IMG/VR virus record: IMGVR_UViG_3300044715_000866
From: a virus
Lineage: Duplodnaviria > Heunggongvirae > Uroviricota > Caudoviricetes
Length of the DNA: 64,000 nucleotides
Reading direction: 5' to 3' (one strand)
Part shown: one piece after another, positions 1,956 through 20,155 of the stretch
How the letters are laid out: each line of letters opens with the position of its first letter
Numbering within the stretch: the stretch's first letter is position 1
The notes under the pieces: model-generated
What the model was told of the DNA's origin: nothing
Databases searched by the model: none
Seen by the model: only the letters and a program-made list of their open reading frames with translations
Program-made: the position numbers and the translations under genes

Positions 1956-2585
1956 TTATTTAATTCCTTTTAACTCGTCTATTTGAACTTGTTGTGCTTT
2001 AATACATTCAATTAACAATGGAATTAATTTCTGATAATCAACAGCTAAAATGCCATTATCTCTTTCATGTACTGCTTCTGGTAGTACTTCAATTACTTCT
2101 TGAGCAATTACACCTACGTCATATTCTTTAAATAAAGATTGATTTTGAGTTGCATAATAATCTGCAGTCCATTTAAATGTATTGCCTGAAAGTGTTAGTA
2201 ATTTCTCAAGTGGGTTAGCAATAGGAGTAATATTTTCTTTTAATCTTTTATCCGAACTATTGTAAGCAGTAATATTCTGCAACGCAGTAAGATCATGTTT
2301 ACAATTTACTACACTACCAGCAGCTGTCGACCCAATGTTAACTATAGTTGCAGCTCCACCAATATTAAGAGTAGTTGCAGTAGTATTAATTAGATCAAAG
2401 CTTCCAACAACTGATGCAGATATAGAATCTGTAAAAAGAGGAGCAGTTGCAAAAACTAACTTCCCAGTACCAGTAGTATCAACTGCACCGACATCAGCTA
2501 AATTAATGTAATCTAAATATGCTAATCGACCTAAATCAGCATTAGTTGGTACTTGATGTGGTCTATTTCCTATAAAACTACTCAT
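1956..2585 (-). CDS. Small tail-fibre-like protein with a C-terminal peptidase-S74 intramolecular chaperone (auto-cleaving) domain.
   Basis: The 209-aa protein has the conserved S74 block SDKRLKENITPI...LEKLLTLSGNTFKW...GVIAQEV...YQKLIPLLIECIK, matching endosialidase and T5-L-fibre chaperone domains. Its N-terminus is Gly/Thr-rich and fibre-like. Confidence 0.75.
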   Translation of the reverse strand: MSSFIGNRPHQVPTNADLGRLAYLDYINLADVGAVDTTGTGKLVFATAPLFTDSISASVVGSFDLINTTATTLNIGGAATIVNIGSTAAGSVVNCKHDLTALQNITAYNSSDKRLKENITPIANPLEKLLTLSGNTFKWTADYYATQNQSLFKEYDVGVIAQEVIEVLPEAVHERDNGILAVDYQKLIPLLIECIKAQQVQIDELKGIK

Positions 2586-2640
2586 TGTTGCAACCCTTTT
2601 AACGTTTTAGTTTTGTATGTTTGTTTCATTATTTATTCCC

Positions 2641-5600
2641 TTATTGCATTGTAAGTACTAACAATTCATTACCGCTTAATTGTTTTGCGTAATATGTAAA
2701 TTTTGTAATGTATTGTGTACCGACTCCATTACCAAATTTTAACATATTAACATCAATTGGAGCTGCAAAATTGCTATCATCAACAGCCGCTGGCTGATTA
2801 TTAAACGTATATGTTGCAGGAGATGTTGCAGGATTTAAACCATAACTAACTGCATGAGTTACAATTGTGTTTAACGTTGACGTTGTATAACCAGCAAAAT
2901 CAAACTGAACAGTTGAGGTGTTAGTTTTACAAACCGAATTATATACAATGCTTCCGCTAGCCGAATTACATCCAACTTCAATGTACGATGTTACTGCAGG
3001 TGAAGTTTGAATTCTAGCACCGCCGTAATCAGCAAATCCGTCATTAATACCTAACGCAGTATGTGATAACACCATAGTACCTTGTGTCTTGCTATACCAA
3101 CTAGAAAAATTAGTTCCAGTTACATTAACATCTTCTACAGTTCGAAGCACTGGTGCTTCGAGCGTAGGAATATAACTTGTCATATATTTACCATCTTCAA
3201 GTTGCGCTCCCCATAATACAACAGTAGTATCAGTAGATGCAAACTGTAAACTTATTTTATTTGTAGGTGGAGATTCAGTAAAGCTAAGTCGAACTAGCGA
3301 TGAAATATCATATGTTGATTCATCTATTACTGTCCAATTCATACTAGTTGAGAATTTATAACTTATTGCGCCAACTCCTGTAACTCGTTTAATCCATATT
3401 GAGAATGTTTTAAACCCACTACCCGTTGTCGAATCGTTAAACACTAATTCTGCATTAGCAGCATTGGCAGTAAATTGATATGCAAACCCTATACCATACG
3501 GAGTTAAAGTATTTGATGTTGCGCGTGTCATTAACGGATATGTCCATGACGAGAACGATTCAGATCTTGTTAAATAATTTGTTCTTGCTTCTTCAAGTAA
3601 CAACCCTTTTGACTCTCTAGTAATTGGATCGTGATCAAACCTTGCGCAATTTGGATCAGCAACAACTAATAAACCGGTTGAATTATAATATGTTGCAATA
3701 CTTGTTCTGCTAAACGTAATACGAGGATCAAGTGTTTTACTATTAGCAAAATCAAACATAACTGATGGACGTATTGTTGGTCTTGTTGCAGTTGCAGTAA
3801 TCCCTGTTGCAGACATTATTGAACTACCTAATGTTAAGTCAATTCGGCTGTTTGTTGATAGTGCCCATTTTCCAGTTATAGTACCTTCAATAGTTGCATC
3901 ACCAGTTGATAATGTTTTAGATTTTAATACACTAGTAGCTGCAGTAACATCTAACGTACCTGTAATTGCTACATTAGTAGATGATGCCGCGCCACCCGAT
4001 GCAACTATAAAATCAACGTTGCCAGGTGTAGTAAATTTAACTTGTCTGTTTGGATTAGTATCGTCAACATTATATGTATCAATGATAGTATAACCATCAA
4101 CTTTTAAACCTTTAACATTAATAACACCGTTAGTATCTGTCTGAACAATACTAGATGCTCCGCCAACTTGTGTATACGGAACTACTTCATATGCAGTTGC
4201 CTTACTGCTAACTACTGTTTTAACTGTCATTACACCAACTGATGTAAATGTTGCATTTTTAATACCGTCGCCATCAAGTACAATGTCACCTGTTGAAACT
4301 TCAGTAACTGCACCGGTTGCATTAGTATAGTTACCTAACATTTTCTTAGCAGCAACATGTTTTATTTTAGAAATATCAATACCGTTAGCAGATGTTCCGG
4401 TTTCTAAATCAATCCACCCATTAGTAGATTTAAACACTGCACTATTATACGTTGATACACCTAAATCAGATTGCAGATTAGTTGATGCAGCTCTTGCCAC
4501 TGCTTTAACTAAGTTTAACTTGCTTTGATCTATTTCAGCAGTTAAACTAACCATACTGTTAACAATTTTAGCAGCCCCAATAGTTGAAGTTAATGTAGCA
4601 GTAGAACCAACTACTACATACGCAATAGTTACATCGCCAGTTAATGTTGAGTTAATCCATTTATTTGGTCCAAGTAACCCAGTGTTTCTTTGTACTAGTA
4701 ATTGAGCATCAACTAATGTAGCAGATGTTATTGATACATCTCCTAATTCTGATATTGCATTGTTACTAGCAATTAATCTATCAACATACCCTTTAGTTGC
4801 AGCATCTTTTGATTCAATATCAGGTTCTAAACTTGGTGTTTTAAGATTAGTAATTGCATTGTTACCCATTGATAAATCGCCAGACATAACAAGCGATCCG
4901 TTTAATGGTAAAAACCCTGGTCCAATCCATGTAGAGAATGGAACTGCAGAACCACCGTGGTCTAAACCTAATCGTTTGTCAATATATCCACGTACTGCAC
5001 TTTGTACTGGTACCGTGTCAGCAGCGTTGTTAGTTAATGAAGAGTCTGATGAAAATTCATTTACTACAACACCTCGACTAAATCCAAAACCTTCAATATT
5101 TGATAATGAAATCTTAGCACTAAATGTTACTGTTCCTGTACCTTGATCTACTGAGAAAAACCGCCCTACTCTAAATATACCGTCTTGGTTGGTTGAAACA
5201 TAGAAACAACGACCTACGCCTTCGTCCAACGTCTCGCGTGATGCATTACGAGGTAAAGCAGGATCACCGTAAATTGAATATGGAATATTTGTTGTACTAT
5301 ATCCGCCTGTTCCAATATCGCAGAAATCATGCCCAGTTGCACGACATGTACTAATACGTGTTGTTACTTGTGCAAGTGAATTAGATTGGTGTCCAATTTT
5401 TAATGTATACGACGAACTACGACTAAAAGGTTTACTAATACCTAAATTAGAACTAGTTCCAGATGCTAATGTATCTGTTATTAGCGTAGGATCTACTATA
5501 TCAAAAACACCCGGATTATATGGATAAAATACAGTAGCACTTGTAGCTGTTGCAGATATTACACGAACAAATCCATTATATAATGCGTTAATGTTTCCTT

Positions 5601-8600
5601 CAACTTTAAGCCATGAATTGTCTGCTAGTGTTGTAGCTCTTGCATTAAATTGGAAAGTTACTGAATATCCGGTTGCGTTAGTTGACGAAGTTGGTAACGG
5701 AGATGTAAGTACTGTAGATGTAGTACCTAAAATTTCAGCTCCCGGATTAACAGATTCTACAGGATCAGTTGGGTATAACACAGTTATTCTATTAACAGAT
5801 ACTCCTTCAGATGCAGTTGTATCTACATACACCGGAGTAGATAATTCAACTGATAAATCAGCAGGTGTTATAGGTTGAAGTTCATCTGGAAGATGTAAAT
5901 TTAAATCCGGAATATTAATATATCCAGAACCACGATAAACAATTTTAATTTCAACAATTTTAGTATCAACAATCTTACATACTGCTTTTGCTTGTTTTGT
6001 ATATCCTCCGCCATCGATTGTAATTGTCGTACCATCAGGATATCCAAGACCGCCATTTACAACAGTTATTGTTTTAACATTTGCCGCAGTTGATGCTCTA
6101 ATTTGAGATCCTGCAGGAACCCAACATGACGGACTAACTGTAATAGTATGATTTGGAATATCAACTTCTTGAATAATTGCACCAACGCCACTAATTGATT
6201 CTACTGCCGAGGTCACAACCATGCCAACCTTAAATCCATTAGTTGAACTAATTGTTAACGTAGTTTGATCTAATACACCAACAACTTGATAAGAACCGTT
6301 ATAGTCACTTAATGCGTTATCGTTAACTGCAATATTAAGATAACCGTCAACTTTTGGTAACACATTATCTTTATTATACGGAACATCAAACGTTACGACT
6401 GTAGCAACTACGCTGCCGTCTTGCAATGCCTTACTATGATACGACATTGCAGGTAATGTATAGTCGTCGGCACTATTATTTGTTATTGGAACACTTGAAA
6501 TTTCAATATATCCGTTACGTGTAGATCCAAATGTAACTGAGTAATTATTAATTGCAGTACCGACTGTATCTCTAACTGTTACAACTGCAATAGCCGGGTC
6601 TTCGCTATTAATTACTACATTATCAACATACCCAGTAAGTGTGATAGTAGTTCCATTTTTTACTACAAAATAATCAGAAATATTAATTGTGCCTACAGTA
6701 CCACTAACTGTTAGTATATTACCAACATAGCTAGTACATGTTCTACTAACTGCAGCAGTTGGTTGTACATATTGCAAAATTTGATGTATTCTACCATTCC
6801 ATGCTGTAATATAGGTTTGTTTGTTAAGTTGATCTATTACTGCAATTTGTGTAATTGGAATTACTGCAAGTTTAGTATCACTTACTTTATACCCTTGGGT
6901 TGCATTTGTAAACGAAACTTCGCCTGATGGTGTTACCGACGGTGCTGCCTCTAATGATGGTTCAACTGTTGTTAACACAATCTCAAATTTACCAGCATCT
7001 ACACCTGTTTTTGCAACTACAGATTGGACTATTTGTCCAGCAAACCCAATACCAACAATTGTTTGACCTACTGCAATGGTAGTACCAGCTGCAACGTTAT
7101 TAACGACAATCGTCGTACTTGATGTACTACCTGATACAACAGTTGCAGTAATAGTGTTAGACGGATCGCCGTTGATGATATTAGTAGGATCGATCATAAT
7201 ATTGTAATATGCAAATGAATTATCACTTTGTAAAATTGCAATATTTGGATCTAATAGCTCACCGGTTGATTCTGCTAAATTATAAGCAACGATACGATAT
7301 ACATCATTTAAGTTATCGTTATATTGCAATGCAGTAGACGGTCTAGTTGGTTTAACGTTATCAATGTTATTAAACTTAACATTTTTTAATACACGAATTG
7401 ATACTACTTGTCCATCATACAACGCTTTTGCTAATCCTGAACTTGCAGTGTTATTATCGCCTGATGTACTTAAATTAAGTTTAATTACAATTATGTTGTT
7501 TACCCGAACAGTAGTATACTCAACTGATGTAATAATATAGTTAGTAATAATACCACCGTTTGCACTATGGTCAATTTCTAATCCCGACCCGGTAGTTGGA
7601 ATATACTCATACGCATGTACCCATACTGCAACTGCAGGAGTAGTAGCAGTAGGCACCATCTCGTTAATAGTTTCACCTTGTTTATAAACTTTTGCAGTTT
7701 GCAACATATGATTTGCTAAGTTTGCACTATCTGGTAATTCAGTAACATCAAACCCTGAAGCACGCATACCATAGTTACCAAATGTGTTTGAACACCCGAC
7801 ACCACGTAAATTACTACCGTTATTTGCCCAGAACCCGGTATGTGCATAATATGTAAATGTACACACTTGTTCAGTAAATGCACCGTTAGATGCTACTATA
7901 CCATAACCTAAATCGTTAAACATTGCAAAGTCATTTGCTAACATTGAACGATTACCACCGGTTTCTAAATTAATTGTTAAATCTGCACCGTTGTTTAAAA
8001 AATCAGTTACTTGTTTAGCAATCCCAGTAGGACCTGTAATATCTAACCCAGTGTATGCAGTTGTATTAACATTACTTGGCAACGTAGGCCATTCTACTGT
8101 AGGTAAGGTTGATGCTACATTTGGATTTGAATTTACATAATCAATTACTATATTAACTAGCGTAGTAAGGGTTAAATCAAATGTACTATCAGCAGCTAAT
8201 GTTTGAATTTGATTTTCTTTATTGCCACGGGTTGGAGTTACTTCAACACCTTTAACAATTGATGTTAAAATATTACGTAATCTTATGTATGCTGTTTGAC
8301 ATACTGATTGCACATCTCCATCTAACAATACTGATTCATATAAATTTGAATTGTTTTTAGAAAATAACGACGTAGCATAATCAACTGTTTGGCTGTTACC
8401 GCCATAGAAAATATCATATGTAATTGCATCAACTAAATAGCCAACATCACGTTCACTCTTTTGTCTATTATAGTTAGGCAACGTGCTTAACACATAATTA
8501 TCTGAAATATACGCAGTTATTTCAGCTTTAATAAACGGTTTATTAATTTGAAGAATATCACGAGCTTTATTTTCATTTAGTGTTTTAGATGCCCAAACAA

Positions 8601-11600
8601 AGTCTAATGTAGCACTTACACCGTTAACTAACATACTTGTTATAAGTGTACTTGATAAAGTTAACCCGGGAATTTCAGCATTTGCTAATTCGATCGATTT
8701 CTCAATTCCTGCTTTAGTTAACCCTTGAAGCTCTCCAATTAACAAACTAGAAGATAGTCTTAAGAATGCTCTACCTGCATGTATTGCACGATAATTAGTA
8801 CCTAATATCGCATCAGTAACTACTGCATCAATTACATACCCTGCATCGCGTCGTGCCTTTACTTCATCGTACACTAAATTGTTTGATATTGGATTATACA
8901 TATACGGCGTTGTAGTATCTAACGTTAACGTTACTGTTTGAGTAGCAGCATTAAATTCAACAATGTCGTCAATTTGATAACGCTTTCCTCTAACATAAAA
9001 CGAACATGGCGGTTGTGGAGGTCTAACATCAAGTCCGCTGCTTTGACCAAACACAATTTTACCAGACGGCGTACTATCTGCAACTGCACTTAATACCACT
9101 GTAGCATTAGTCGATGGCGCAACTGGTAACGTTACACTTACAACATATTGTCTACTTTCAAATCCAGTACCTGTAATTTTAACACCTGGTTTTAATCCAA
9201 CAATGTTAACGATATTATTAACAACCATAGTAGTTGATAATCGTCCGCCACTTACATATGTACCAACTGCACTAGTTGTACCTTGTACTTTAATTGTAAG
9301 ACCTAAGTCAGTAATCTCTTTAATAGTGCCGTATACGCGACCTGCAAATCCGTCAATATATTGTCCACCTGCAAATCGTTTATAGTTGTTACTTTGTGAA
9401 AAACTAGAACATTCTTGAATGTACGGTGATTTAGTTTTAATGTTACCTTCTGGATCTAGAACCATTGCAAAGCCGCCTTGACCTTGGAACGTTACACCAA
9501 TAATACGATTACCTTCATTACATAAGAATACGTCAATTTCTTTATTATTTTTAGCAGGACTTGTTACATCTAATGGATTAGTTAAATAATGACGTCCGTA
9601 GTTAATAGTGTCAAACAAGAACCAGTTGCCGGCTAGTTTAGTAAATGCAGTTTCAAACGGATAAATTACCGTACAGTTCATTGTGTTACCACTAACTGAA
9701 TCAATAACTGCTTTTCCTCTTTTCTTATTGCCACCAGCAGGTATAACATTATCAGTAAACACTTTACCTACCCAACTTAATAATGCTTGGTAATTATTAC
9801 TTAACGTGATAATAATTTTACCACTAACACCGTCAAGCGTAGCAGTAATACCTAAAGAGACTAACGGTGCCGAATTTGAAGCATAATCAATAAGACCTAC
9901 TTCTAACGCATCAATAATTGCATCGCGATAGAAAAATACTCTACGCCACGGGCTTTGACTTTCTCTATCGATTGGACGAATAAGTGTTCTACGCATCTCG
10001 TCACCGCGAACTGAAACGTTTGCTGGAATTTTTAACGGAAAGTCTTCGTAATATATTCCGCTTTCTATAAATACTGAAAGATTTAAATCTCGTACTGTTT
10101 CACCAAATTCCAATTCTTCGCCTACTTTAAAGAAACCGGGTTTAGTTAATCGAACTTGTATTCTGTCTTTACCTGTTGATATTTCAGGTGTGTATTTTAC
10201 AATGCTAGCATACGCCCCTGATGCAGTTAAATTAGTTGACACCCGGCCAACTCCGACAATTATCTTAGCAGGAAAAATATCATTGCTTTTTGGAGCACCT
10301 TGGTCAACATAACCCTTACCGCCGTTGTCAATATCAATATTCCAAATTGCAGTACCGTGCGACGGCGTGGCTGCAAAACTAACACCGTAACGGATTATGT
10401 CTAATACACTATCTAAACTATCAGTAAATATTGCAGTAGCTTCATCTGAAATTTCAGACAGATAGCTGCCAACTACTCCAATGCTACTTGATGGTAGTAT
10501 TGCAGTTGATGAAAACGCAGTAAGCTGAGTTTCAGCTTGTTGGTATCGAACTGCTGTGTAACCTGTTAATACCTCTATACCTAAGTTTTTTGCAAATGCA
10601 ATACCGTCAAAAGATTGAACATAATGTGTGCCAATTGCAACTGATTTCGCGCTTGAGTTTTTGTAAAAACTTTTACCTGCAGTTATTGATTGCCAGTTTC
10701 CACCGGTAATAATATCTATTGCGGCTGCATCAACTATTAGTCCAATATCGCGATAACATAACGATTCATCATAATTAAATCCACCGCCAAACGCAGTATT
10801 AACATAATCAATAGAGGTATTTTCAATTACTTCGGCATTATTATTAATAATAACCTTTAAACTAATTGCATCAATGTATGTTCCACCAGTAAATATAGTG
10901 TCATCAACTGGGATACCCATATATAAGTCATTATCAATTGCAGTAGCTGCAGCTGTAAATTTTGTACCAATAAGGGTTGACGTTGCATTAGTATCATCGT
11001 CGTCGCTATGTCCGTTAACGATAGTTCTAGCGTATAACGAAGTTTTACTAATAACAGTTTTTGTAATAGCCGGCGTGCTAACTATTGTCATTTGATGTGC
11101 AGCTGCAACCGATGCTGCTGTCCCGCCGTACGTAATATCATAACATACTGAAATAATTAGTTTCCTTAAATCAACTGCTAATATAGCTAAAACATCTACG
11201 TCAGTGATACTTTCATCAATATCTAAATATGAGTTAACATCATTAATAATACTAGTAATAGCAGCATTATCTAAACGATTACGTGCGTTACGAATCCAGC
11301 CATTTGGTAGCGGTTGTGTAGTGCCGCCAGTTACATATGAATTTACTTCAACATTAATATCTGGATATCTTGGTAACTCTGTCGGAAGTTCACCTGACTT
11401 AATTATTGTGTCAATTTCAACAAACAACGCGTTAATTCTTTCTAAATAATTAGGATCGTTAATTACTGGGTAGAAGTGATCCATATACCATGATGCTGTA
11501 GTAGTAACATCTGAATTTGTGCCAACAGTGTATATAGATTTATCTAATTCTAATGCTGTAAAAAATGTTATTAAATCAGGTGTCCCAGCAGCAGAATTTG

Positions 11601-14148
11601 GCAACTGGATAGCCGGAGTAGTATTACGTTCTAATATATCTTTAATTGTTAATATGTTAGTATGTATTGAATTGACTGCGTTAATACCATTTATTAACGT
11701 ATCGTTTCTATATTGTCTAACTGATTGTTGGTATTGTTTAGTAATTGAATCATTTTCAACAATTTTTTCTGCTAACTCACCTACCTGTGCAATTGCAGCC
11801 GCACATGCAGCACGATTAACATTTGAAACATTATTGCTAATATTAATATCCCAAAATCTTCTACCTACATATACTGATTGACTATTACCAGAATACATTA
11901 AGTCATATGCTAAACTCCAAATAATATACTTAACATCTCGCATGCATAACTCTCTGTCATAAGTAACATCTGAATATTCTGCACTTAAAAATGCAATAAT
12001 TTCAGCTTGTACAAATGGAATATTTGCTAACAACAAATCCTTTGCACTCGATCTTCCAACAGTATCATAACTGCTTATTGCTGCCGGAGCATATACTTTT
12101 GGCATAACTACTGCAGGTAATACACTATCAGTTACAATTTTACTAATAATTGCTGCATTAGATCTAAATGATGCTTTTGCAGTATTATTAAGATCAGGTC
12201 TTAATAATAACATATTAATTAAATTTTTACGATCAAACGACCCATTAGACACGATATAAGTATCAGAAGCTAATGCTGAACTATTAAATATTTTAATTTC
12301 GTAATTAGAAGAAACTTGCACTTCATATGATATTATTACATCATCTTCAACAGATGTTAACGAAAACGGATCTCCACCAGTTGTTTCAGGAGTAAATGTG
12401 CCGTTAATTAAAATATGACTATATGGAGGAAATACATTAGAAATTTGAGTTGCAAATTTTAAAGTAATGTATTCAGCAGTAACTGCTACCGATTTAATGC
12501 TAATTGGATTAATTGTTAACATTGATTCTAACTGAGTAGCATTTAAATTAGTTCCTGCGTTAGAAAATGCAATACCGGCCTGAATACTTTGGTAATTTGA
12601 TTTATATATTAAGTCGTATCCTAACGAATTGATAACCTGGATTATATATGCTGATAACTCTGTAGTTGCATACGATAATTCAAGTAACTGTTTTTTAATA
12701 AATTCGATAGTTGACAACCATTGAATCAACCCTTCATTAGTATTATTGCGATGTAAATACGAAATTGCAGCCCACTGTGAATTAAAATTTGTACCAGGAA
12801 TACCTGTGATATCAAAATGTTCAGTGTTTACATTTTCAGTTCCGTTAGCGCCTAACCACAAGTCAGTTGCAATTGCAGTTAGCAATGATGAGTCGTGGTC
12901 AGTAGCAGTAAGCTTTAACGACGAGATTTGTTTTCTAAAAGTAGTATCATCATATTCAAATTTATTAACATATTTTTTATTAATATATGCAATAGTTTCT
13001 GCTTGAATAAACGCTCGGTTTGCTTGCAATATGTTAAATGCAGCAATCATTCCTGCACTGTTATTATTATTTTCTACATTATTGACAGTATTTCCGCCTG
13101 TTAGTGCAACTGTTTGAATTGTAGAAAACGTTTGATCCGGCCCATCCGTCCATGATATACGTTGTTTATATGGTCCAGGCTCTTGGCTAGCTAACGAGAT
13201 TAAAGACTCAGCGTGTAGCAGTGCTGCACCGATTGATCTAAACGCATAGTTCCAATATCTACCTTCGCGCCCTGCAGGTGTTTTAAGCTGAAGATCGTCG
13301 CCACTTGACGCTACATACAAATTAACATTACTTGAAAATGTTTTATTATCAACATAGAATGCAGTAGCTGCTTGTAAATCTTCTTTACTAGATGCACCAA
13401 TTGTACCAGCTAAATTGTTAGGATGATCATGCAAGTATAATGGGCCACGCATTGTATCTCCGCCGCGATATACTGCATCAACACGCGGCAATACTTCATT
13501 TGACAAATAATTACCAGTTAGGGTTGGATCATAATTAGGATTGCCAATAGGCGGCAAAGTAGGTTCGTCTCTTGCTTTTACTGGTCCTGGTACAATAATA
13601 CCGTTTGCATCAGGTATACCTACGATGCCATCTTCAGTTAACCTAACATAATTTGTATTAGCAAATCCAACAGTTACTGGTAGTTGATCCAATGTCGTTT
13701 GATCATCATGAACTAAGTTAAAATCTCTAACAGCTTGATCACTAGGCGATACTAATCGACCAATAGTAAATAACCCTGCATTTAACGGAGCTCCTAATGT
13801 TGGAAACTCTTCATTAACTAATTGTGCATCACTTCTTAATGAAATAACAATTGCGTCAAGTCCTGGATCAGATGGAGAATCTTGAATAATTCTCTGTTCA
13901 ATTCGTATACCTGCACCTTCAACAAATGATTTTGCAGTTAACCCGCCACTGCTGCTACCTACAATAATTTGCCCAATACCGTAGTCACACCCGTCGGATA
14001 AATCACTAAATCCAATAGTACCCTCACCGCCTTTAAAGATACTATAAATTTCATTAAAATTGTCATTAACTTTACGAAACGAGTCGCGTATACTGTCGCC
14101 AGTACCGTCGTTTCCTTGAGCACCAATGTCGATTATCTGTTTTGTCAT
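2641..14148 (-). CDS. Giant 3,835-aa virion protein, a putative tail fibre/adhesin, with a right-handed beta-helix (pectate-lyase-like) segment and internal repeat modules.
   Basis: Single uninterrupted 11.5-kb ORF with RBS aagggg and an ATG at 14146-14148. It contains NLYVASSGDD...GREGRYWNYAFRSIGAAL, a typical beta-helix N-cap. At least five copies of the motif RDxxYxxDxxxYDxxYGGNxQ(S/T)V are present, preceded by NxPF(I/V)xAExIAY. A second beta-helix-like stretch (NWFLFDTINYGRHY...FQGQGGFAMVLDPEGN) is also present. Confidence 0.8.
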   Translation of the reverse strand: MTKQIIDIGAQGNDGTGDSIRDSFRKVNDNFNEIYSIFKGGEGTIGFSDLSDGCDYGIGQIIVGSSSGGLTAKSFVEGAGIRIEQRIIQDSPSDPGLDAIVISLRSDAQLVNEEFPTLGAPLNAGLFTIGRLVSPSDQAVRDFNLVHDDQTTLDQLPVTVGFANTNYVRLTEDGIVGIPDANGIIVPGPVKARDEPTLPPIGNPNYDPTLTGNYLSNEVLPRVDAVYRGGDTMRGPLYLHDHPNNLAGTIGASSKEDLQAATAFYVDNKTFSSNVNLYVASSGDDLQLKTPAGREGRYWNYAFRSIGAALLHAESLISLASQEPGPYKQRISWTDGPDQTFSTIQTVALTGGNTVNNVENNNNSAGMIAAFNILQANRAFIQAETIAYINKKYVNKFEYDDTTFRKQISSLKLTATDHDSSLLTAIATDLWLGANGTENVNTEHFDITGIPGTNFNSQWAAISYLHRNNTNEGLIQWLSTIEFIKKQLLELSYATTELSAYIIQVINSLGYDLIYKSNYQSIQAGIAFSNAGTNLNATQLESMLTINPISIKSVAVTAEYITLKFATQISNVFPPYSHILINGTFTPETTGGDPFSLTSVEDDVIISYEVQVSSNYEIKIFNSSALASDTYIVSNGSFDRKNLINMLLLRPDLNNTAKASFRSNAAIISKIVTDSVLPAVVMPKVYAPAAISSYDTVGRSSAKDLLLANIPFVQAEIIAFLSAEYSDVTYDRELCMRDVKYIIWSLAYDLMYSGNSQSVYVGRRFWDINISNNVSNVNRAACAAAIAQVGELAEKIVENDSITKQYQQSVRQYRNDTLINGINAVNSIHTNILTIKDILERNTTPAIQLPNSAAGTPDLITFFTALELDKSIYTVGTNSDVTTTASWYMDHFYPVINDPNYLERINALFVEIDTIIKSGELPTELPRYPDINVEVNSYVTGGTTQPLPNGWIRNARNRLDNAAITSIINDVNSYLDIDESITDVDVLAILAVDLRKLIISVCYDITYGGTAASVAAAHQMTIVSTPAITKTVISKTSLYARTIVNGHSDDDDTNATSTLIGTKFTAAATAIDNDLYMGIPVDDTIFTGGTYIDAISLKVIINNNAEVIENTSIDYVNTAFGGGFNYDESLCYRDIGLIVDAAAIDIITGGNWQSITAGKSFYKNSSAKSVAIGTHYVQSFDGIAFAKNLGIEVLTGYTAVRYQQAETQLTAFSSTAILPSSSIGVVGSYLSEISDEATAIFTDSLDSVLDIIRYGVSFAATPSHGTAIWNIDIDNGGKGYVDQGAPKSNDIFPAKIIVGVGRVSTNLTASGAYASIVKYTPEISTGKDRIQVRLTKPGFFKVGEELEFGETVRDLNLSVFIESGIYYEDFPLKIPANVSVRGDEMRRTLIRPIDRESQSPWRRVFFYRDAIIDALEVGLIDYASNSAPLVSLGITATLDGVSGKIIITLSNNYQALLSWVGKVFTDNVIPAGGNKKRGKAVIDSVSGNTMNCTVIYPFETAFTKLAGNWFLFDTINYGRHYLTNPLDVTSPAKNNKEIDVFLCNEGNRIIGVTFQGQGGFAMVLDPEGNIKTKSPYIQECSSFSQSNNYKRFAGGQYIDGFAGRVYGTIKEITDLGLTIKVQGTTSAVGTYVSGGRLSTTMVVNNIVNIVGLKPGVKITGTGFESRQYVVSVTLPVAPSTNATVVLSAVADSTPSGKIVFGQSSGLDVRPPQPPCSFYVRGKRYQIDDIVEFNAATQTVTLTLDTTTPYMYNPISNNLVYDEVKARRDAGYVIDAVVTDAILGTNYRAIHAGRAFLRLSSSLLIGELQGLTKAGIEKSIELANAEIPGLTLSSTLITSMLVNGVSATLDFVWASKTLNENKARDILQINKPFIKAEITAYISDNYVLSTLPNYNRQKSERDVGYLVDAITYDIFYGGNSQTVDYATSLFSKNNSNLYESVLLDGDVQSVCQTAYIRLRNILTSIVKGVEVTPTRGNKENQIQTLAADSTFDLTLTTLVNIVIDYVNSNPNVASTLPTVEWPTLPSNVNTTAYTGLDITGPTGIAKQVTDFLNNGADLTINLETGGNRSMLANDFAMFNDLGYGIVASNGAFTEQVCTFTYYAHTGFWANNGSNLRGVGCSNTFGNYGMRASGFDVTELPDSANLANHMLQTAKVYKQGETINEMVPTATTPAVAVWVHAYEYIPTTGSGLEIDHSANGGIITNYIITSVEYTTVRVNNIIVIKLNLSTSGDNNTASSGLAKALYDGQVVSIRVLKNVKFNNIDNVKPTRPSTALQYNDNLNDVYRIVAYNLAESTGELLDPNIAILQSDNSFAYYNIMIDPTNIINGDPSNTITATVVSGSTSSTTIVVNNVAAGTTIAVGQTIVGIGFAGQIVQSVVAKTGVDAGKFEIVLTTVEPSLEAAPSVTPSGEVSFTNATQGYKVSDTKLAVIPITQIAVIDQLNKQTYITAWNGRIHQILQYVQPTAAVSRTCTSYVGNILTVSGTVGTINISDYFVVKNGTTITLTGYVDNVVINSEDPAIAVVTVRDTVGTAINNYSVTFGSTRNGYIEISSVPITNNSADDYTLPAMSYHSKALQDGSVVATVVTFDVPYNKDNVLPKVDGYLNIAVNDNALSDYNGSYQVVGVLDQTTLTISSTNGFKVGMVVTSAVESISGVGAIIQEVDIPNHTITVSPSCWVPAGSQIRASTAANVKTITVVNGGLGYPDGTTITIDGGGYTKQAKAVCKIVDTKIVEIKIVYRGSGYINIPDLNLHLPDELQPITPADLSVELSTPVYVDTTASEGVSVNRITVLYPTDPVESVNPGAEILGTTSTVLTSPLPTSSTNATGYSVTFQFNARATTLADNSWLKVEGNINALYNGFVRVISATATSATVFYPYNPGVFDIVDPTLITDTLASGTSSNLGISKPFSRSSSYTLKIGHQSNSLAQVTTRISTCRATGHDFCDIGTGGYSTTNIPYSIYGDPALPRNASRETLDEGVGRCFYVSTNQDGIFRVGRFFSVDQGTGTVTFSAKISLSNIEGFGFSRGVVVNEFSSDSSLTNNAADTVPVQSAVRGYIDKRLGLDHGGSAVPFSTWIGPGFLPLNGSLVMSGDLSMGNNAITNLKTPSLEPDIESKDAATKGYVDRLIASNNAISELGDVSITSATLVDAQLLVQRNTGLLGPNKWINSTLTGDVTIAYVVVGSTATLTSTIGAAKIVNSMVSLTAEIDQSKLNLVKAVARAASTNLQSDLGVSTYNSAVFKSTNGWIDLETGTSANGIDISKIKHVAAKKMLGNYTNATGAVTEVSTGDIVLDGDGIKNATFTSVGVMTVKTVVSSKATAYEVVPYTQVGGASSIVQTDTNGVINVKGLKVDGYTIIDTYNVDDTNPNRQVKFTTPGNVDFIVASGGAASSTNVAITGTLDVTAATSVLKSKTLSTGDATIEGTITGKWALSTNSRIDLTLGSSIMSATGITATATRPTIRPSVMFDFANSKTLDPRITFSRTSIATYYNSTGLLVVADPNCARFDHDPITRESKGLLLEEARTNYLTRSESFSSWTYPLMTRATSNTLTPYGIGFAYQFTANAANAELVFNDSTTGSGFKTFSIWIKRVTGVGAISYKFSTSMNWTVIDESTYDISSLVRLSFTESPPTNKISLQFASTDTTVVLWGAQLEDGKYMTSYIPTLEAPVLRTVEDVNVTGTNFSSWYSKTQGTMVLSHTALGINDGFADYGGARIQTSPAVTSYIEVGCNSASGSIVYNSVCKTNTSTVQFDFAGYTTSTLNTIVTHAVSYGLNPATSPATYTFNNQPAAVDDSNFAAPIDVNMLKFGNGVGTQYITKFTYYAKQLSGNELLVLTMQ

Positions 14149-14228
14149 ATTAAGTTACACCCCTTATGTGAACATGTTGTTTTACGATATTTATCAAAAA
14201 AATTTTATAATCTTAATGTAAATACAAT

Positions 14229-15035: not shown

Positions 15036-15066
15036 AAAAAAGGCAGCCTAAGCTGCCTTTTTTATT
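15036..15066. terminator. Bidirectional rho-independent terminator between convergent genes.
   Basis: The sequence is aaaaa aggcagc ctaa gctgcct ttttt. It has a 7-bp GC-rich stem flanked by an A-run and a T-run. Confidence 0.7.
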
Positions 15067-15598
15067 ATCCTGTATATCTACAATGGCTCTTCTTTGTTTC
15101 CCACAGCTCAACTGCAGTAACCTTTGCTACATCACCAATGCGTGATTGTGCATATTCAAACAAATACTTACAGATGTTTTCACTAGTTGGTACAAAATCT
15201 ACTAGTACAAAACTGTTATAATGTAACTGCTCACCTTCAGTTAATCCGACCCAGTTGCAAGTTCCTAAGTTAGTAAAGTTTGCAAATGGGTGTTCTGAAT
15301 TCCTCCATTCGTTACCTGTAATTAACTTAAAGTTTGGATCATTAATATCAATCATAAACTTATGATCTAGCACATCATCTACAAATTGTTTCATAAAGTT
15401 TAAATTCTTAAAGTCTGTAACCATTTCTGAATGATCTAAAGTATCAGAACCTAAAAATACTTTAATTGAATAGCTGTGTCCGTGTAAATGCTTGCAGGCA
15501 CAGTCAGTTGAAATACTTAACTCAACATGATTTAATTTTTGTGCCCATACTCTGTGTCCCATTTCAAAATGAAACTCTTTATCTATTTCCCATTTCAT
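15065..15598 (-). CDS. queD: QueD/PTPS-family 6-carboxy-5,6,7,8-tetrahydropterin synthase (T-fold).
   Basis: EFHFEMGHRVW aligns with the QueD N-terminal FEAAHRL motif. CKHLHGHSY matches the Cys-x3-His-Gly-His zinc/catalytic motif, and VLDHKFMID matches the LDHxxLND block. Its own sigma70-like promoter lies on the minus strand at 15626-15654. Confidence 0.8.
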   Translation of the reverse strand: MKWEIDKEFHFEMGHRVWAQKLNHVELSISTDCACKHLHGHSYSIKVFLGSDTLDHSEMVTDFKNLNFMKQFVDDVLDHKFMIDINDPNFKLITGNEWRNSEHPFANFTNLGTCNWVGLTEGEQLHYNSFVLVDFVPTSENICKYLFEYAQSRIGDVAKVTAVELWETKKSHCRYTG

Positions 15599-15655: not shown

Positions 15656-16045
15656 CTACTTCTTCATATCAGCACAACTATCTACTGCTGGACAATCGTT
15701 GCATATGTTGCCAGCTGTTTCTTTACAATTCACAATAATCCTTATTTGGTCAAGATCTGATGTAATCTCAGTTAATATTTGATATTCAGAATGCACAGCC
15801 CTGACTATTTTACCAATTGCACTAACTGTCCAATACCACCAATTTATACTAACTATTAAACTAACCGAAATAATTCCCCACCAAATTAAATTATTATCAA
15901 GACTAGAAAGATAAAACCAACTAATAATCATACCAATAACTGCTACTACTACTAACGAACTAGCATATAACCATAATCTACGCTGACGATAGATCACTTC
16001 TAACTCGTCAGTATGGTCTTTAATTTTTCTAGTATTGTCGTCCAT
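15656..16045 (-). CDS. Small membrane protein with two TM helices and a Cys-rich C-terminus.
   Basis: LWLYASSLVVVAVIGMIISWFYL and LIWWGIISVSLIVSINWWYWTV are hydrophobic helices. The C-terminus is CKETAGNICNDCPAVDSCADMKK. Confidence 0.55.
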   Translation of the reverse strand: MDDNTRKIKDHTDELEVIYRQRRLWLYASSLVVVAVIGMIISWFYLSSLDNNLIWWGIISVSLIVSINWWYWTVSAIGKIVRAVHSEYQILTEITSDLDQIRIIVNCKETAGNICNDCPAVDSCADMKK

Positions 16046-16121: not shown

Positions 16122-18434
16122 ATGTCATTAACTGTCTGGAACAAACAATCTGGCCTGCTTGCAACTATCCAAGAAGGCAACGCTATTAATATTCAATTGC
16201 CGGCTAATCATCATAGCAATATTCATTATGCTATTATTTCTGGTAAGTTACCACCAGGTACTTGGATTGATAAAAATTATATAAAAGGAACACCGTACGA
16301 AGTTTCAAGAGAAACTACTTTCTCATTTTGCATCCGTGCGTCTCAACAAAATTATGGAATTTCAGATCGAACATTTTCACTAATAGTCAACGGGGCAGAT
16401 GCTCCTGTTATTGTAACACCAACTGGATTGCTTGATATTGGACCTAAAAAACAATTATATGTTATAGATAATACATTTGTTAACTATCAAATTCGTGCAA
16501 TAGATTCTGATACTAGTACTGGTCAAAAACTAACCTACTATATAGATCCAGCGTACGGCATACTACCGCCTGGGTTATCTCTTACTAAAGATGGAATAAT
16601 ATACGGTGTAGTTGATGCAGTAACATCGTTAACTCCAAATGACGGCACAGGTGCCTACGACAACGGTTTATTTGACGTTTCACCGTACGACTTTGCAAAT
16701 ATTCAACAACAAAATGGATTTGACGTATATCCATACGACAAACCAGGTTACGATTTTACAATTACATTAAAACCTAAAAAACTAAACCGACATTATCGAT
16801 TTAGAGTATTTGTAACTGATAGTGAGACAGCAACACCTCCAAGTAGAGAATTTGAAATATTTGTAGTAACTGATTCATTTTTTAGAGCAGATGCAGACGC
16901 ACTTATTTCTGATTTAAAACCGTTTACTGCCGATGTAACGTATTTGTCGCAGCCAATCTGGATAACACAATCTAACTTAGGTATATATCGTGCAAATAAT
17001 TATATTACGTTAATGTTAGATGTATATGATACAGGATTAATATACTACACATTAGGAAATACTACTACTAGATGGGCCGCTAATACAGTGTATCTAGTGG
17101 ACGATTTAATTTATGAAACTCCTAAAATATCTTATATTTGTAGAGTTGCTCACACATCTGGAAGTTCATTAAATTTAGCTAACTGGGCAAGATACGGATT
17201 GCCGCCTGGCATGGAATTTGATGACAAAACCGGTGAAGTATTTGGTAAAGTGCCGGCCCAACCTGCAGTAACTACTACCTACACTTTTTCAGTAACTGCT
17301 ACACGGCACGGCGATGAAGATACTACTGAGATTGCAAAAACATTAAAAACATTTACTGTTAGTATTATTGGTGAGATCGAAAGTGCAATATCATGGGTAA
17401 CGCCGTCCGAGTTAGGAACAATTGATGCAGGATACGCATCGTCGTTGTTTGTTCGTGCAAATAGTAGTTACTACAATGCAGTTGTTACTCACACTATTAT
17501 TGACGGTAACTTACCGCCCGGACTGTCGTTAATGAGCGACGGTGAGATTGTTGGAGTTATATCTCAATTCTCAACTTCAATTGCGTTTGATCGAAATACT
17601 ACTACGTTTACATCTACAACATTTGATCAAACTAATAAAACTTATGGGTTAACTACATTTTCAAACAACTATGCTAGTAAAACTAGAACTACGTTTGATA
17701 ACAATACTACGTCATTTAATCGTAAATTTACATTTACAGTTAAGGCATCTGACCAATCATACTATAGTGCAACTGAACGCACCTTTACTATAACTGTTAA
17801 AACTCCTAATTTAATTCCATACAGTAATATTAGAGTACAACCGTTCCTTAGTCCTAATCATGTTACATTATGGAAAACATTTATTACCTCAAACGTTTTT
17901 AACATCGATGACATTTATAGACCGTATGACCCTGCATTTGGAATTCAAGATAACCTATCAATGCTTATCTTTGAAGGTATTGAAACTCGCAGTTATGGAT
18001 CATATATATTAGGGTTTAATCATAAAACTAAACACTTTCGATTTGGTAATATTAAAAAAGCAGCTGCAATCTTACCTGGAACTAAAACTGCATTATACGA
18101 AGTAGTGTATATTGAAATGATTGAAACAACATTATCTAATAGTGTTGAAGAGTGGAGATACGAGTTTAGCAGTATTAGCCAACCTAAGTACGACTTTTTG
18201 CCATTATGGATGCGCTCTGTTCAACCTACTTACAGAAAAGAATTAGGATTTATTTTAGCAGTACCAATCTGTTTCTGTAAAGTCGGCACTGCAGACAACA
18301 TAATGTTAAAAATTAAATATAGCGATTTTGATTTTAAACTCATTGATTACCAAATTGATCGATTCATAATCAATGCCGTAACAGGATCACATACCGATAA
18401 ATATATAATATTCGATAACAAGGAAACACAATGA
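16122..18434 (+). CDS. 770-aa structural protein with four putative-Ig (He_PIG / dystroglycan-cadherin-like) repeats, a likely baseplate or fibre component.
   Basis: The repeats are GKLPPGTWID...IKGTP, GILPPGLSLTKDGIIYGVV, GLPPGMEFDDKTGEVFGKVP and GNLPPGLSLMSDGEIVGVIS. A TATAAATA late-promoter box sits 19 nt upstream. Confidence 0.7.
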   Translation: MSLTVWNKQSGLLATIQEGNAINIQLPANHHSNIHYAIISGKLPPGTWIDKNYIKGTPYEVSRETTFSFCIRASQQNYGISDRTFSLIVNGADAPVIVTPTGLLDIGPKKQLYVIDNTFVNYQIRAIDSDTSTGQKLTYYIDPAYGILPPGLSLTKDGIIYGVVDAVTSLTPNDGTGAYDNGLFDVSPYDFANIQQQNGFDVYPYDKPGYDFTITLKPKKLNRHYRFRVFVTDSETATPPSREFEIFVVTDSFFRADADALISDLKPFTADVTYLSQPIWITQSNLGIYRANNYITLMLDVYDTGLIYYTLGNTTTRWAANTVYLVDDLIYETPKISYICRVAHTSGSSLNLANWARYGLPPGMEFDDKTGEVFGKVPAQPAVTTTYTFSVTATRHGDEDTTEIAKTLKTFTVSIIGEIESAISWVTPSELGTIDAGYASSLFVRANSSYYNAVVTHTIIDGNLPPGLSLMSDGEIVGVISQFSTSIAFDRNTTTFTSTTFDQTNKTYGLTTFSNNYASKTRTTFDNNTTSFNRKFTFTVKASDQSYYSATERTFTITVKTPNLIPYSNIRVQPFLSPNHVTLWKTFITSNVFNIDDIYRPYDPAFGIQDNLSMLIFEGIETRSYGSYILGFNHKTKHFRFGNIKKAAAILPGTKTALYEVVYIEMIETTLSNSVEEWRYEFSSISQPKYDFLPLWMRSVQPTYRKELGFILAVPICFCKVGTADNIMLKIKYSDFDFKLIDYQIDRFIINAVTGSHTDKYIIFDNKETQ

Positions 18435-19810: not shown

Positions 19811-20155
19811 ATGAGTATTATACACAAAACAGCTAAAGGAAAACCAGTAGACATGAATAAACTGGTTACACAAAATGAACTTACTGTTGCAGTAAGTAAT
19901 GTTAGAATTAATGCAAGAGGTGATGAGTTAGGACCAGGTGGTCAAATTATTCACAAAAACGTTGAACCTGTTCATACCGGAGTGCCTGTTCAGCAGCAAT
20001 CAATCCGTGAAGTTGCTACCCCCGTTAAACCTGCAGCTCCTAAACCTGCAGCTCCTAAACCTACGTTTTCACCAGTAACTGATTCACCAAATGCACTGTT
20101 ACAACCTGCACCTGAATCAAAAGACGCTGATAAACAACCTAAAGGTAAACAATGA
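19811..20155 (+). CDS. Hypothetical Pro/Ala/Lys-rich protein (114 aa).
   Basis: RBS acggag. PAAPKPAAPKP is encoded by a 2x15-nt tandem repeat (cctgcagctcctaaa). Confidence 0.5.
   Translation: MSIIHKTAKGKPVDMNKLVTQNELTVAVSNVRINARGDELGPGGQIIHKNVEPVHTGVPVQQQSIREVATPVKPAAPKPAAPKPTFSPVTDSPNALLQPAPESKDADKQPKGKQ

Follow-up and report, generated by a model that had tools for sequence, protein, structure and literature searches.

The locus

The stretch of viral DNA analysed here, 64,000 nt long and referred to as the window, contains on its minus strand an open reading frame that continues from ATG to stop through 3,835 codons with no internal stop in the sequence and occupies 17.98% of the window (Table 1). 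A preliminary description of this DNA had reported a single uninterrupted frame of 3,835 aa at 2641-14148, with about 18% of the window in it, and both points are borne out; the strand had been left unstated. The "many spurious antisense ORFs" said to accompany it come down to 13 ORFs on the plus strand with a minimum length of 50 aa, two of which reach 100 aa.

The start codon is preceded by a Shine-Dalgarno-like AAGGGG and, within an 80-nt divergent intergenic region, by the candidate late promoter TATAAAAT. The latter agrees with the T4 late-promoter consensus, TATAAATA, at 7 of 8 positions, as read by eye. The 209-aa gene downstream gives PHROG tail-fibre C-terminal matches (E 2.5e-32) as well as PF13884, and probably belongs to the same fibre module as the giant ORF. 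QueD and a He_PIG Ig-domain protein are the other neighbours. The polymerase and ClpA-like genes of the phage are closest to those of Atu_ph07/Phosso-type jumbo phages. The best explanation is that the DNA comes from an uncultured marine myovirus whose replication genes resemble those of Atu_ph07/Phosso/Rak2-type jumbo phages.

Table 1. Positions of the giant gene, its flanking signals and the parts of its product (aa, residues of the giant protein)
Feature	Position	Strand	Remarks
Giant ORF	2641..14148	minus	3,835 aa in one open frame from its ATG
Shine-Dalgarno-like AAGGGG	14160..14165	minus	11 nt upstream of the ATG; read in the sequence
Candidate late promoter TATAAAAT	14202..14209	minus	54 nt upstream of the ATG
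209-aa gene, Peptidase_S74 / tail-fibre C-terminal chaperone-type domain	1956..2585	minus	55 nt downstream of the giant ORF
Putative N-terminal baseplate-attachment region, aa 1-335	13144..14148	minus	GxxGxGDxxRxxFxKxNxNFxEIY motif, gp9/gp10-like
Module A1, aa 377-409	12922..13020	minus	HMM E 7e-10
Module A2, aa 479-584	12397..12714	minus	without CxRD; HMM E 3e-15
Module B, aa 709-828	11665..12024	minus	LCMRD...YDLMYSGNSQS; copy chosen for modelling
Module C, about aa 991-1060	10969..11178	minus	weak, partial, without RD; HMM E 7e-5 to 7e-6
Module D, aa 1104-1213	10510..10839	minus	LCYRD...IDIITGGNWQS; HMM E 1.5e-28
Conserved beta-rich core block 1, aa 1277-1644	9217..10320	minus	homologue alignment
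Module E, aa 1744-1839	8632..8919	minus	ARRD, without Cys; HMM E 2e-17
Module F, aa 1869-1985	8194..8544	minus	SERD...YDIFYGGNSQT, without Cys; HMM E 4.5e-24
Conserved beta-rich core block 2, aa 2057-2331	7156..7980	minus	GNRSMLANDF...NDLGYG...FTYY...NGG.IR motif
Variable beta-rich spacer, aa 2332-2915	5404..7155	minus	small barrel-like repeats
Conserved fibre-shaft block, aa 2916-3410	3919..5403	minus	phrog_9851 tail fibre protein and homologues
Distal region, presumably receptor-binding, aa 3333-3833	2650..4152	minus	phrog_5939 tail protein, E 1.5e-52
GTA head-spike-fibre domain NF048003, aa 3517-3670	3139..3600	minus	76 bits against a cut-off of 36

A single intact gene

The identical 3,835-aa protein recurs on 5 contigs, drawn from three or more independent samples, in JGI as well as Logan assemblies. 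Homologues are collinear with it over every supposed gene junction, and proteins of 3,000-6,400 aa that bear the repeated module described below are common. A megablast search with the giant gene against cultured phages gave no match.

Separate genes at this place in related genomes had been named beforehand as the sign of an assembly error, and one relative, L004, superficially shows them: over the homologous stretch the gene caller delivers genes of 1,035, 862, 804 and 553 aa. However, the L004 product is a collinear orthologue of the giant protein (45% identity, module order matching), and its breaks are four frameshifts, each within a conserved motif; at one of them GITFAK and DHLGVQVL stand on either side of the break where the giant protein reads GIAFAKNLGIEVL. 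Since the apparent splits are frameshifts inside conserved motifs, L004 has one gene here as well. The giant ORF is one intact, very large real gene, and assembly error is very unlikely.

Block architecture of the protein

The N-terminal block is retained in shorter homologues. In a phmmer search against the PDB, aa 3-39 match the "baseplate wedge tail fiber connector" 9f4a, weakly (E 0.017), and a precomputed match to PF07880 (T4_gp9_10) exists for homologues that share 43-47% identity with the giant protein over aa 1-545. The Pfam scan of the whole giant protein gave no family at E ≤ 0.1, PF07880 and PF00502 included.

In the shorter homologues core block 1 follows aa 206-335 closely, tens of residues apart. 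Specifically, about 27 residues separate the counterparts of aa 206-335 and 1277-1613 in short homologues, and about 34 separate those of aa 1520-1644 and of the part from aa 2057 on. The alignments suggest that aa 336-1276 and 1645-2056 are expansion segments, which may be either insertions within a domain or linear expansions between domains. An AF2 model of 1,111 aa, the second one made, has an all-alpha insert flanked by beta-rich parts. Core block 1 is mostly strands by DSSP on a low-confidence model; the overall pLDDT of the 1,111-aa model is 58.9, and its beta-rich parts are uninterpretable because of this low confidence.

The spacer that follows core block 2 is missing or far shorter in homologues of 1,650-2,090 aa, whose alignment to the giant protein breaks off near aa 2331 and resumes near aa 2916. 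It has a weak phrog_460 match (aa 2639-2838), and self-BLAST relates aa 2335-2413 to aa 1629-1700. The shaft is 44-56% identical to its homologues and matches tail fibres of cyanophages and of Pelagibacter phage Mosig, with the phrog_9851 match at aa 2930-3059 (E about 4e-41). The distal region is 29-35% identical to tail proteins of Synechococcus myoviruses (tblastn, E 4e-30), and its spike-fibre domain is the only match in the NCBIfam scan of the giant protein. Judged from its sequence, the giant protein most likely belongs to a fibre or the baseplate of the virion. The earlier assignment to the virion is thus most likely right, given the gp9/gp10-type N-terminal motif, the PHROG tail and tail-fibre matches, NF048003 and the Synechococcus-like tip.

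A repeated module

An iterated HMM search delimits seven module stretches in the giant protein (E 7e-5 to 2e-35), at aa 377-409, 479-584, 709-829, 992-1055, 1104-1213, 1744-1839 and 1869-1989. Self-BLAST, run with fragments against the whole protein, pairs modules at E values reaching 5e-15. The repeat noticed in the preliminary description is therefore present, and four of the positions given for it (about aa 380, 700, 1010 and 1900) stand. Nothing was found at the other two, aa 1250 and 1570; the misplaced copies are in reality those at aa 1104-1213 and 1744-1839. The motif as it had been typed has zero literal matches, while a looser form, YD[IL].Y[SG]GN, picks up two copies (aa 748 and 1911).

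The copies differ in how much of the module they keep. Cys-x-Arg-Asp (CxRD) is present in two of the seven, B (CMRD) and D (CYRD). E and F retain RD, which is hence found in four of seven; A1, A2 and C have neither the Cys nor the RD. By eye, A1 is a degenerate copy reaching about aa 470, with FRKQ replacing CxRD and with an insert. The L004 orthologue has two adjacent module copies at this place.

A predicted phycobiliprotein-type globin fold

The family to which the module points is PF00502, whose gathering cut-off is 22.2 bits. Module-rich homologues pass it: P0020 with 42.1 bits in three stretches, P0025 with 35.9, P0028 with 29.2, P0027 with 28.1 and P0029 with 27.3. These matches cover profile positions 40-149 of 155, their starts ranging from 27 to 72. 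Taken singly, 7 of 54 modules match PF00502, which is the sole recurrent family; module B alone gives no match to it. That the giant's own copies belong to PF00502 is suggested by homology to their sister copies and by the predicted fold.

Structural comparisons point the same way. The module profile, searched against the PDB, leads to residues 81-104 of phycocyanin alpha, weakly (E 0.04-5), and the module's Cys-x-Arg-Asp falls on the bilin-attachment site Cys84-x-Arg86-Asp87. The AF2 model of module B (pLDDT 88.7) has four main helices, and its top 11 PDB matches in Foldseek are all phycobiliproteins (TMq 0.44-0.63), with weak E values of about 0.3. The second, independent model has copies E and F in its all-alpha insert, and it matches ApcE and PE545 (TMt 0.62-0.66; 0.65 for ApcE). 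Bilin-binding photocobilin and ApcE domains are among the closest folds. Only one residue of the module is invariant, Asp41; this Asp and the YGGN are absent from phycobiliprotein features. Profiles and models together indicate that the module, of about 120 aa, is a phycobiliprotein-type globin domain in truncated form: a PF00502 homologue without the N-terminal X/Y helices.

Distribution of the module

The module was found in 1,531 protein clusters (counted by representatives), in proteins of up to 6,382 aa, and as many as 36 copies can stand in one protein. A comparison of repeat number among related phages had been proposed for this locus, and copy number does vary widely, from 1 to 36. Of 256 copies, 152 have CxRD and another 24 keep the RD; 41% are without CxRD.

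Among cultured phages (50,697 records) the module occurs only in cyanophages, in proteins annotated as tail, baseplate or structural. Two independent module queries retrieved 67 and 349 cultured records, all of them cyanophages. A single-module search of 185,579 species genomes found no relative. With a degenerate DNA pattern 10 loci turned up; each is a giant low-GC ORF in an aquatic MAG, and they are probably mis-binned phage contigs. The searches indicate that the module is limited to the giant proteins of phage fibres and baseplates. As a building block of phage fibres it appears to be undescribed, none having been found in the literature searched.

The proposed fibre and its alternatives

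We propose, with a probability of roughly 0.7, that the giant protein is a baseplate-anchored fibre, presumably trimeric, lengthened by globin-like modules. The gp9/gp10-like N-terminus would plug the protein into the myovirus baseplate. Next would come the conserved beta-rich core that is common to the homologues of 1,650-2,090 aa, interrupted by two expansion segments that together would hold the seven four-helix modules of about 120 aa. Beyond the core, the variable spacer would lead into the conserved shaft and a receptor-binding tip like that of Synechococcus myoviruses. The modules may be knobs or spacers, compact and rigid and perhaps also able to bind, that extend and decorate the proximal fibre, and their copy number could be an evolvable parameter of length and valency. 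The earlier suggestion of a stalk or of ligand-binding units remains a fair yet unspecific guess.

A more far-reaching possibility is that the CxRD modules (B and D in the giant protein, and the majority of those in relatives) attach bilins, which would render fibre or baseplate responsive to light, or decorated with bilins. The bilin would be supplied by the host or by a phage HO, PebS, PcyA or PcyX, and be attached either free of a lyase, as in BBAG-1/3, or by a phage CpeT. The exact alignment of CxRD on Cys84/Arg86/Asp87, its frequency in the family and the bilin-binding proteins among the nearest folds all favour this idea. To these may be added the restriction to cyanophages among cultured phages and the presence of the module in P-HM2 and S-PM2, which adsorb in a light-dependent manner. 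CXRD is a hallmark common to phycobiliproteins and the lyase-independent bilin-binding BBAG-1/3 (PMC10151467). The light-dependent adsorption of P-HM2 and S-PM2 does not need host photosynthesis, and its mechanism is not known (PMC6628666), while the role of the bilin genes of phages is an acknowledged mystery (PMC3037559; PMC11480375).

Several observations nevertheless make bilin attachment unlikely. Only two of the giant's seven copies have the Cys, CxRD is missing from 41% of copies in the family, the domain is truncated (the match starts at about profile position 40), and the invariant Asp41 and the YGGN are foreign to phycobiliproteins. The link to light-dependent adsorption is anecdotal, with two phages, and confounded by phylogeny. 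We know of no report of coloured cyanophage virions. No heme oxygenase, bilin reductase or other bilin-synthesis gene was seen among the 30 window ORFs scanned with Pfam or PHROG, or by eye in the rest; as the window covers a genome only in part, this absence does not decide the matter. In a weaker form of the idea, the CXRD bilin-binding-globin clade would have a third lineage, so far unrecognised, made up of the phage modules.

The preliminary description had instead seen the beginning of a tailspike. On this reading a right-handed, depolymerase-type beta-helix would be the enzymatic part, and the repeats would be stalk or ligand-binding units around it. The string on which it was based, NLYVASSGDD...GREGRYWNYAFRSIGAAL, is indeed present at about aa 275-311, within the N-terminal block, and its NLYVASSGDD...FRSIGAAL may resemble the cap at the N-terminus of pectate-lyase-type helices. 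In the low-confidence model the conserved core blocks consist largely of strands, which around aa 2058-2130 are short and follow one another at regular intervals. Yet three tests failed to lend support: the Pfam/NCBIfam scans gave no Beta_helix, Pectate_lyase or tailspike family, the core profile had zero matches in the PDB, and the top 50 Foldseek matches of the core model held globins and small beta-barrels instead of a beta-helix. At a pLDDT of 58.9 this Foldseek result should be read as absence of support, short of disproof. All told, a beta-helix of this kind is quite improbable. As to an artefact, whether through chimeric assembly or through a read-through that fused several neighbouring fibre genes, the split gene calls in L004 are what speaks for it, and it is close to refuted by the recurrence of the identical product in independent samples and assemblies, the position of the L004 breaks, the collinearity across all junctions and the commonness of such large module-bearing proteins.

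What the module means

Giant fibre genes as such were known already, P-HM2 gp7 having 4,454 aa and relatives up to 6,382 aa. What appears to be new is the building block: a putative phycobiliprotein-type globin, with CxRD in most copies, spread over at least 1,500 clusters of phage tail and baseplate proteins in 1-36 copies. If the modules of the proposed fibre are purely structural, a light-harvesting or bilin-binding fold would have been strikingly recruited into the virion. The module would then also be of practical use, marking cyanophage-type fibres in metagenomes by sequence.

If bilins are bound after all, the virions of marine myoviruses would carry them covalently attached, and the ho1, pebS, pcyA, pcyX and cpeT genes of phages would gain a virion-directed purpose. 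This would bear on why phages, even those of hosts without phycobilisomes, carry genes for bilin synthesis. It would also bear on how some cyanophages adsorb only in light, by offering a photoreceptor for S-PM2, P-HM1 and P-HM2. A third CXRD-globin lineage would bear on the unresolved origin of phycobiliproteins.

Comparison with known systems

The module resembles phycobiliproteins and the bilin-binding globins (BBAG-1/3, photocobilin, photoglobin) in that sister copies pass the PF00502 cut-off and in that CxRD sits on the equivalent helix. It departs from phycobiliproteins in missing the X/Y N-terminal helices, which are their alpha-beta dimerisation element, in having the invariant Asp and YGGN, and in lacking the Cys in many copies. 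Whereas phycobiliproteins are soluble subunits of 160-180 aa, the phage modules are built, in tandem or scattered, into giant extracellular proteins of the virion.

The same module of about 120 aa (KCxRD...D...YGGN) is present in virion proteins of cyanomyoviruses that run to thousands of residues: in two copies in P-HM2 gp7, the "baseplate wedge initiator", and in S-PM2, S-CAM, S-RIM and ACG-2014 proteins annotated as "short tail fiber", "tail protein" or "virion structural protein". T4-like cyanomyoviruses also provide the best cultured matches for the giant's shaft and distal tip, although the polymerase and ClpA-like genes set its phage apart from them. That the giant protein is an orthologue of gp7 was considered and rejected, BLASTP against P-HM2 gp7 aligning the module regions only. 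Moreover, cyanomyovirus gp7 is encoded in a gp6-gp7-gp8 baseplate cluster, whereas the giant ORF lies next to non-structural genes and its product begins with a putative gp9/gp10-type plug.

With the head-spike fibre of the Rhodobacter capsulatus GTA the giant protein has a single domain in common. Its aa 3517-3670 match the full 182-position profile of NF048003, but the GTA domain is on a head spike and the giant's copy would sit at the far end of a fibre on the tail or baseplate. T4 gp9 and gp10 are proteins of 288 and 602 aa. The first 40 or so residues of the giant protein weakly match a solved gp9-type connector, and its homologues carry the gp9/gp10 family, PF07880; unlike gp9 and gp10, however, the giant's plug would continue into some 3,600 residues that form the fibre itself.

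A single giant gene

ORF listing and translation confirm one frame from ATG to stop (2641..14148, minus strand; 3,835 aa without an internal stop) that occupies 18% of the window, as the preliminary description had it. The many spurious antisense ORFs mentioned there come down to 13 of at least 50 aa overlapping the gene, only two of them of at least 100 aa. Because the exact product is recorded on five contigs (the longest 110 kb) that come from two JGI metagenomes and one Logan assembly, at least three independent samples, the giant gene is genuine and no assembly accident. Upstream of it, TATAAAAT resembles the T4 late-promoter consensus.

Separate genes in related genomes had been proposed as a sign against a single protein. 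An apparent split does exist in a 45%-identical relative on a 174-kb contig (L004), whose annotation over the homologous stretch shows genes of 1,035, 862, 804 and 553 aa; the gene caller yields ORFs of 1,035, 862, 804, 61 and 553 aa, two with a GTG start. True gene boundaries, however, are absent. By tblastn the two are collinear from aa 1 to 3442 of the giant, and the L004 frame switches at aa 1187/1188, at 2079/2081 and at about aa 2980-3030, where the giant is contiguous. In three-frame reading the first break lies within a conserved motif ('GITFAK | DHLGVQVLNKASATRYQ' vs. 'GIAFAKNLGIEVLTGYTAVRYQ' in the giant), as does the second ('MLANDFAMINDS | LGYAIVVTNG' vs. 'MLANDFAMFNDLGYGIVASNG'). 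Since conserved motifs span them, the breaks are indel frameshifts, with the look of sequencing or assembly errors or of gene decay. In L004, too, the relative is therefore encoded by a single gene (about 3,390 aa), and its modules follow the same order as those of the giant.

Features of the giant gene, its relative and neighbouring genes (aa, residues of the giant protein)
Feature	Position	Strand	Basis or remark
Module A1	aa 377-409	minus	HMM E 7e-10
Module A2	aa 479-584	minus	HMM E 3e-15
Module B	aa 709-829	minus	HMM E 2e-35
Module C	aa 992-1055	minus	HMM E 7e-5
Module D	aa 1104-1213	minus	HMM E 1.5e-28
Module E	aa 1744-1839	minus	HMM E 2e-17
Module F	aa 1869-1989	minus	HMM E 4.5e-24
Blocks common to giant and short homologues	aa 1-335, 1277-1644, 2057-2331, 2916-3410	minus	homologue alignment
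Expansion segment 1	aa 336-1276		holds modules A1 to D
Expansion segment 2	aa 1645-2056		holds modules E and F
Expansion segment 3	aa about 2332-2915		beta-rich spacer
Shine-Dalgarno-like AAGGGG	11 nt 5′ of the giant's ATG	minus	read in sequence
TATAAAAT	80-nt divergent intergenic region upstream of giant	minus	near T4 late-promoter consensus
209-aa gene, Peptidase_S74/tail-fibre C-terminal chaperone-type domain	1956-2585	minus	directly downstream of giant gene
QueD/PTPS gene	15065-15598	minus	PHROG and Pfam
Second QueD-like, GTP cyclohydrolase I-like and QueE-like radical-SAM ORFs	48683-49042, 52104-52775, 53920-54762		by eye only
Four L004 frameshifts	13090-13110, 15725-15740, 18300-18480		contig JGI 3300071517 Ga0620987_00713

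A scaffold with expansion segments

Relative to a conserved scaffold, the giant protein has three expansion segments. Complete homologues of 1,650-2,090 aa (contigs of up to 304 kb) have four blocks in common with it; in these, the equivalent of aa 206-335 is followed by ~27 residues and then by 1277 onward, and that of aa 1520-1644 by ~34 residues and then by 2057 onward.

Both ends resemble fibre or baseplate proteins, the N-terminal one tentatively. The N-terminus carries the motif GxxGxGDxxRxxFxKxNxNFxEIY, and its sole PDB match is 9f4a, a gp9-type 'baseplate wedge tail fiber connector' (E 0.017); PF07880 (T4_gp9_10) is present in homologues 43-47% identical across aa 1-545. The C-terminal third matches a PHROG tail-fibre family (E 4e-41), a PHROG tail family (E 1.5e-52) and the NCBIfam GTA head-spike-fibre domain (76 bits, cut-off 36), and resembles tail fibres of cyanophages and of Pelagibacter phage Mosig, the tip matching Synechococcus myovirus tail proteins (E 4e-30). 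The giant gene, the S74-type gene and an fn3 gene form one fibre gene cluster. The fn3-containing product (2,014 aa), encoded past the window start at 22193-28237 of contig L001, is a second very large fibre-like protein and has no globin module. Divergently transcribed and two genes upstream of the giant, 16122-18434 encodes 770 aa that include a putative Ig domain of the He_PIG family (Pfam E 4e-16); PHROG gave no match, and the product may be a further surface or structural protein.

The beta-helix segments earlier ascribed to the giant found no support in family, profile or fold searches. Pfam and NCBIfam gave no beta-helix family on it, and the profile of its conserved core had no match in the PDB. 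In the AF2 model of aa 1230-2340 (1,111 aa), of low confidence (pLDDT 58.9), an all-alpha insert sits between flanks rich in strands; Foldseek matches this model to globins and to small beta-barrels (F1-ATPase crown, E1 FCCH), with no tailspike or pectate lyase among the matches.

The module as a phycobiliprotein-type globin

The repeat motif as first typed has no literal match in the giant. A looser form, YD[IL].Y[SG]GN, matches at aa 748 and 1911, and BLAST of giant fragments against the whole protein finds significant internal pairs (best E 5e-15). An HMM iterated to convergence on the giant together with 77 homologues defines a module of ~120 aa in seven stretches, with no further copies elsewhere in the window. 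It upholds the repeats placed at ~380, 700, 1010 and 1900 and finds none at ~1250 and ~1570. A1 and A2 are probably two neighbouring degenerate copies, as the L004 orthologue has two there. The consensus is NxxFIQxExxAYI...Y....CxRDxGxIxDAxxYDxxYGGNxQ...AG..Y, with one Asp as the sole invariant residue. CxRD occurs in 152 of 256 copies, and RD without the Cys in another 24; within the giant the Cys is confined to B (CMRD) and D (CYRD), RD being kept in E and F.

Module-rich homologues match the Pfam phycobiliprotein family PF00502 above its gathering cut-off of 22.2 bits: P0020 at 42.1 bits (E 1e-10; three stretches, profile positions 40-149 of 155), P0025 at 35.9, P0028 at 29.2, P0027 at 28.1 and P0029 at 27.3. 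When modules were scanned singly, 7 of 54 matched PF00502 and other families were non-recurrent; the giant's own copies gave no significant match to PF00502. A profile of the 54 modules finds in the PDB almost exclusively phycocyanin alpha chains, weakly (E 0.04-5) and always at residues 81-104, the module's K-C-x-R-D-x-G-Y aligning on K83-C84-x-R86-D87-x-G-Y. The AF2 model of module B, built from the module alignment, is confident (pLDDT 88.7, pTM 0.81) and has four helices, and its top 11 Foldseek matches in the PDB are phycobiliproteins only (TMq 0.44-0.63; the best seven with a probability near 0.9). In a second, independent model, which contains copies E and F, the helical insert again resembles phycobiliproteins, namely ApcE (TMt 0.65) and PE545 beta (TMt 0.62-0.66). 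Because Pfam, the PDB profile and two fold models agree, the module is assigned, on these predictions, to the phycobiliprotein-type globins as a truncated domain without the X/Y helices.

Distribution of the module

Relatives vary in copy number, the comparison proposed earlier. Among 1.84 billion cluster representatives, the module profile (HMMER) matches 1,531 proteins at E ≤ 1e-3, of which 628 reach E ≤ 1e-30, with up to 36 modules in one 6,382-aa protein; the six or seven copies of the giant are a modest number. The proteins P0085-P0087 (4,799-6,382 aa) are mostly 31-36 tandem globin modules.

The module is confined to giant phage fibre or baseplate proteins. Two independent single-module queries of 50,697 cultured-phage records matched 67 and 349, all cyanophages except one marine virus, in genes annotated as short tail fibre, tail protein, baseplate wedge initiator or virion structural protein. 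A strict degenerate pattern found ten loci in 185,579 species-representative genomes, every one a giant open frame of low GC on a contig of an aquatic MAG; neither an isolate nor a cyanobacterium is among them. Module-bearing MAG contigs (GC 32-42%; 1-9 modules in the stretches read) are labelled Rhodobacteraceae, Verrucomicrobiales, Crocinitomicaceae, Chitinophagales and Gammaproteobacteria; L009, L013, L014 and L015 (FZLS01000008/12/13) belong to 'Rhodobacteraceae bacterium Water_Bin34', and L007, L008, L011, L012 and L016 are further such contigs. They are most likely phage DNA mis-binned into bacterial MAGs, since the one Rhodobacteraceae bin mixes contigs of very different coverage (5.7x, 67x and 88x).

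Possible roles

The giant protein is most probably a trimeric fibre anchored in the baseplate, in which the globin modules would form compact helical knobs that lengthen and decorate the proximal part, while the distal domains would bind the host.

That CxRD copies bind bilins is a possibility which we consider unlikely. In its favour, CxRD is conserved at the position of the chromophore site, and the module, among cultured phages nearly restricted to cyanophages, is related to globins that bind bilins without a lyase. The motif contains the Cys needed for covalent chromophore attachment and is common to phycobiliproteins and the lyase-independent BBAG-1/3 (Rockwell et al., 2023; PMC10151467). 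However, it is missing in 41% of copies and in five of the giant's seven, the domain is truncated, its invariant Asp and YGGN are not phycobiliprotein features, and the window ORFs scanned included neither a HemO nor an FDBR gene. To our knowledge, pigmented virions are unreported. If true, bilin binding would help to explain two matters on record as puzzling: what phage bilin-synthesis genes are for (Sullivan et al., PMC3037559), a question also raised for pelagimyophage-like phages (PMC11480375), and the light-dependent adsorption of S-PM2, P-HM1 and P-HM2 (PMC6628666). Both P-HM2 and S-PM2 bear the module.

A literature search covering few subscription journals found phycobiliprotein-like or bilin-binding-globin domains undescribed in phage virion proteins. 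The relation to PF00502 may already have been noticed by others, since public precomputed Pfam hits exist. The giant gene is a new member of a large family without a name, and its domain context is new within the bilin-binding-globin superfamily.

Affinities of the phage

The window probably encodes a 7-deazaguanine DNA-modification gene set (queuosine/archaeosine-type), and an adjoining 631-aa ORF (46274-48169) could be a transglycosylase. A chaperone/protease-like set (20152-20535, 29649-30539, 30596-32896 and 57918-60258) comprises GroES/Cpn10-like, DnaJ-like (by eye) and ClpA-like ATPase members and a MoxR/CobS-like AAA ATPase beside a DUF2201 metallopeptidase/VWA protein. Low-complexity tandem peptides (GGMPPAPGGMG, APAVEPNKE, NAPPVTQ) were seen by eye at the ends of ORFs 25664-26275, 39420-40892 and 40882-41796; the last two of these ORFs also hold, again by eye, a peptidoglycan-binding-like 'DG(V/I)DGVxGxxT' motif.

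In the cyanophage P-HM2, gp7 (4,454 aa) has two KCxRD copies and shares the modules with the giant; the rest is unrelated. The DNA polymerase (42430-45093) and the ClpA-like ATPase (30596-32896) are 41-49% identical to those of their nearest cultured phages, Sinorhizobium phage Phosso, Agrobacterium phage Atu_ph07, Vibrio phage 2.275.O and Rak2-type jumbo phages. By these genes the phage is no typical T4-like cyanophage, whereas the nearest cultured relatives of its fibre gene are cyanophages, and the fibre parts point to the cyanophage gene pool. As the two affinities differ, the phage would be either mosaic or an uncultured jumbo phage whose fibres are of the cyanophage type.
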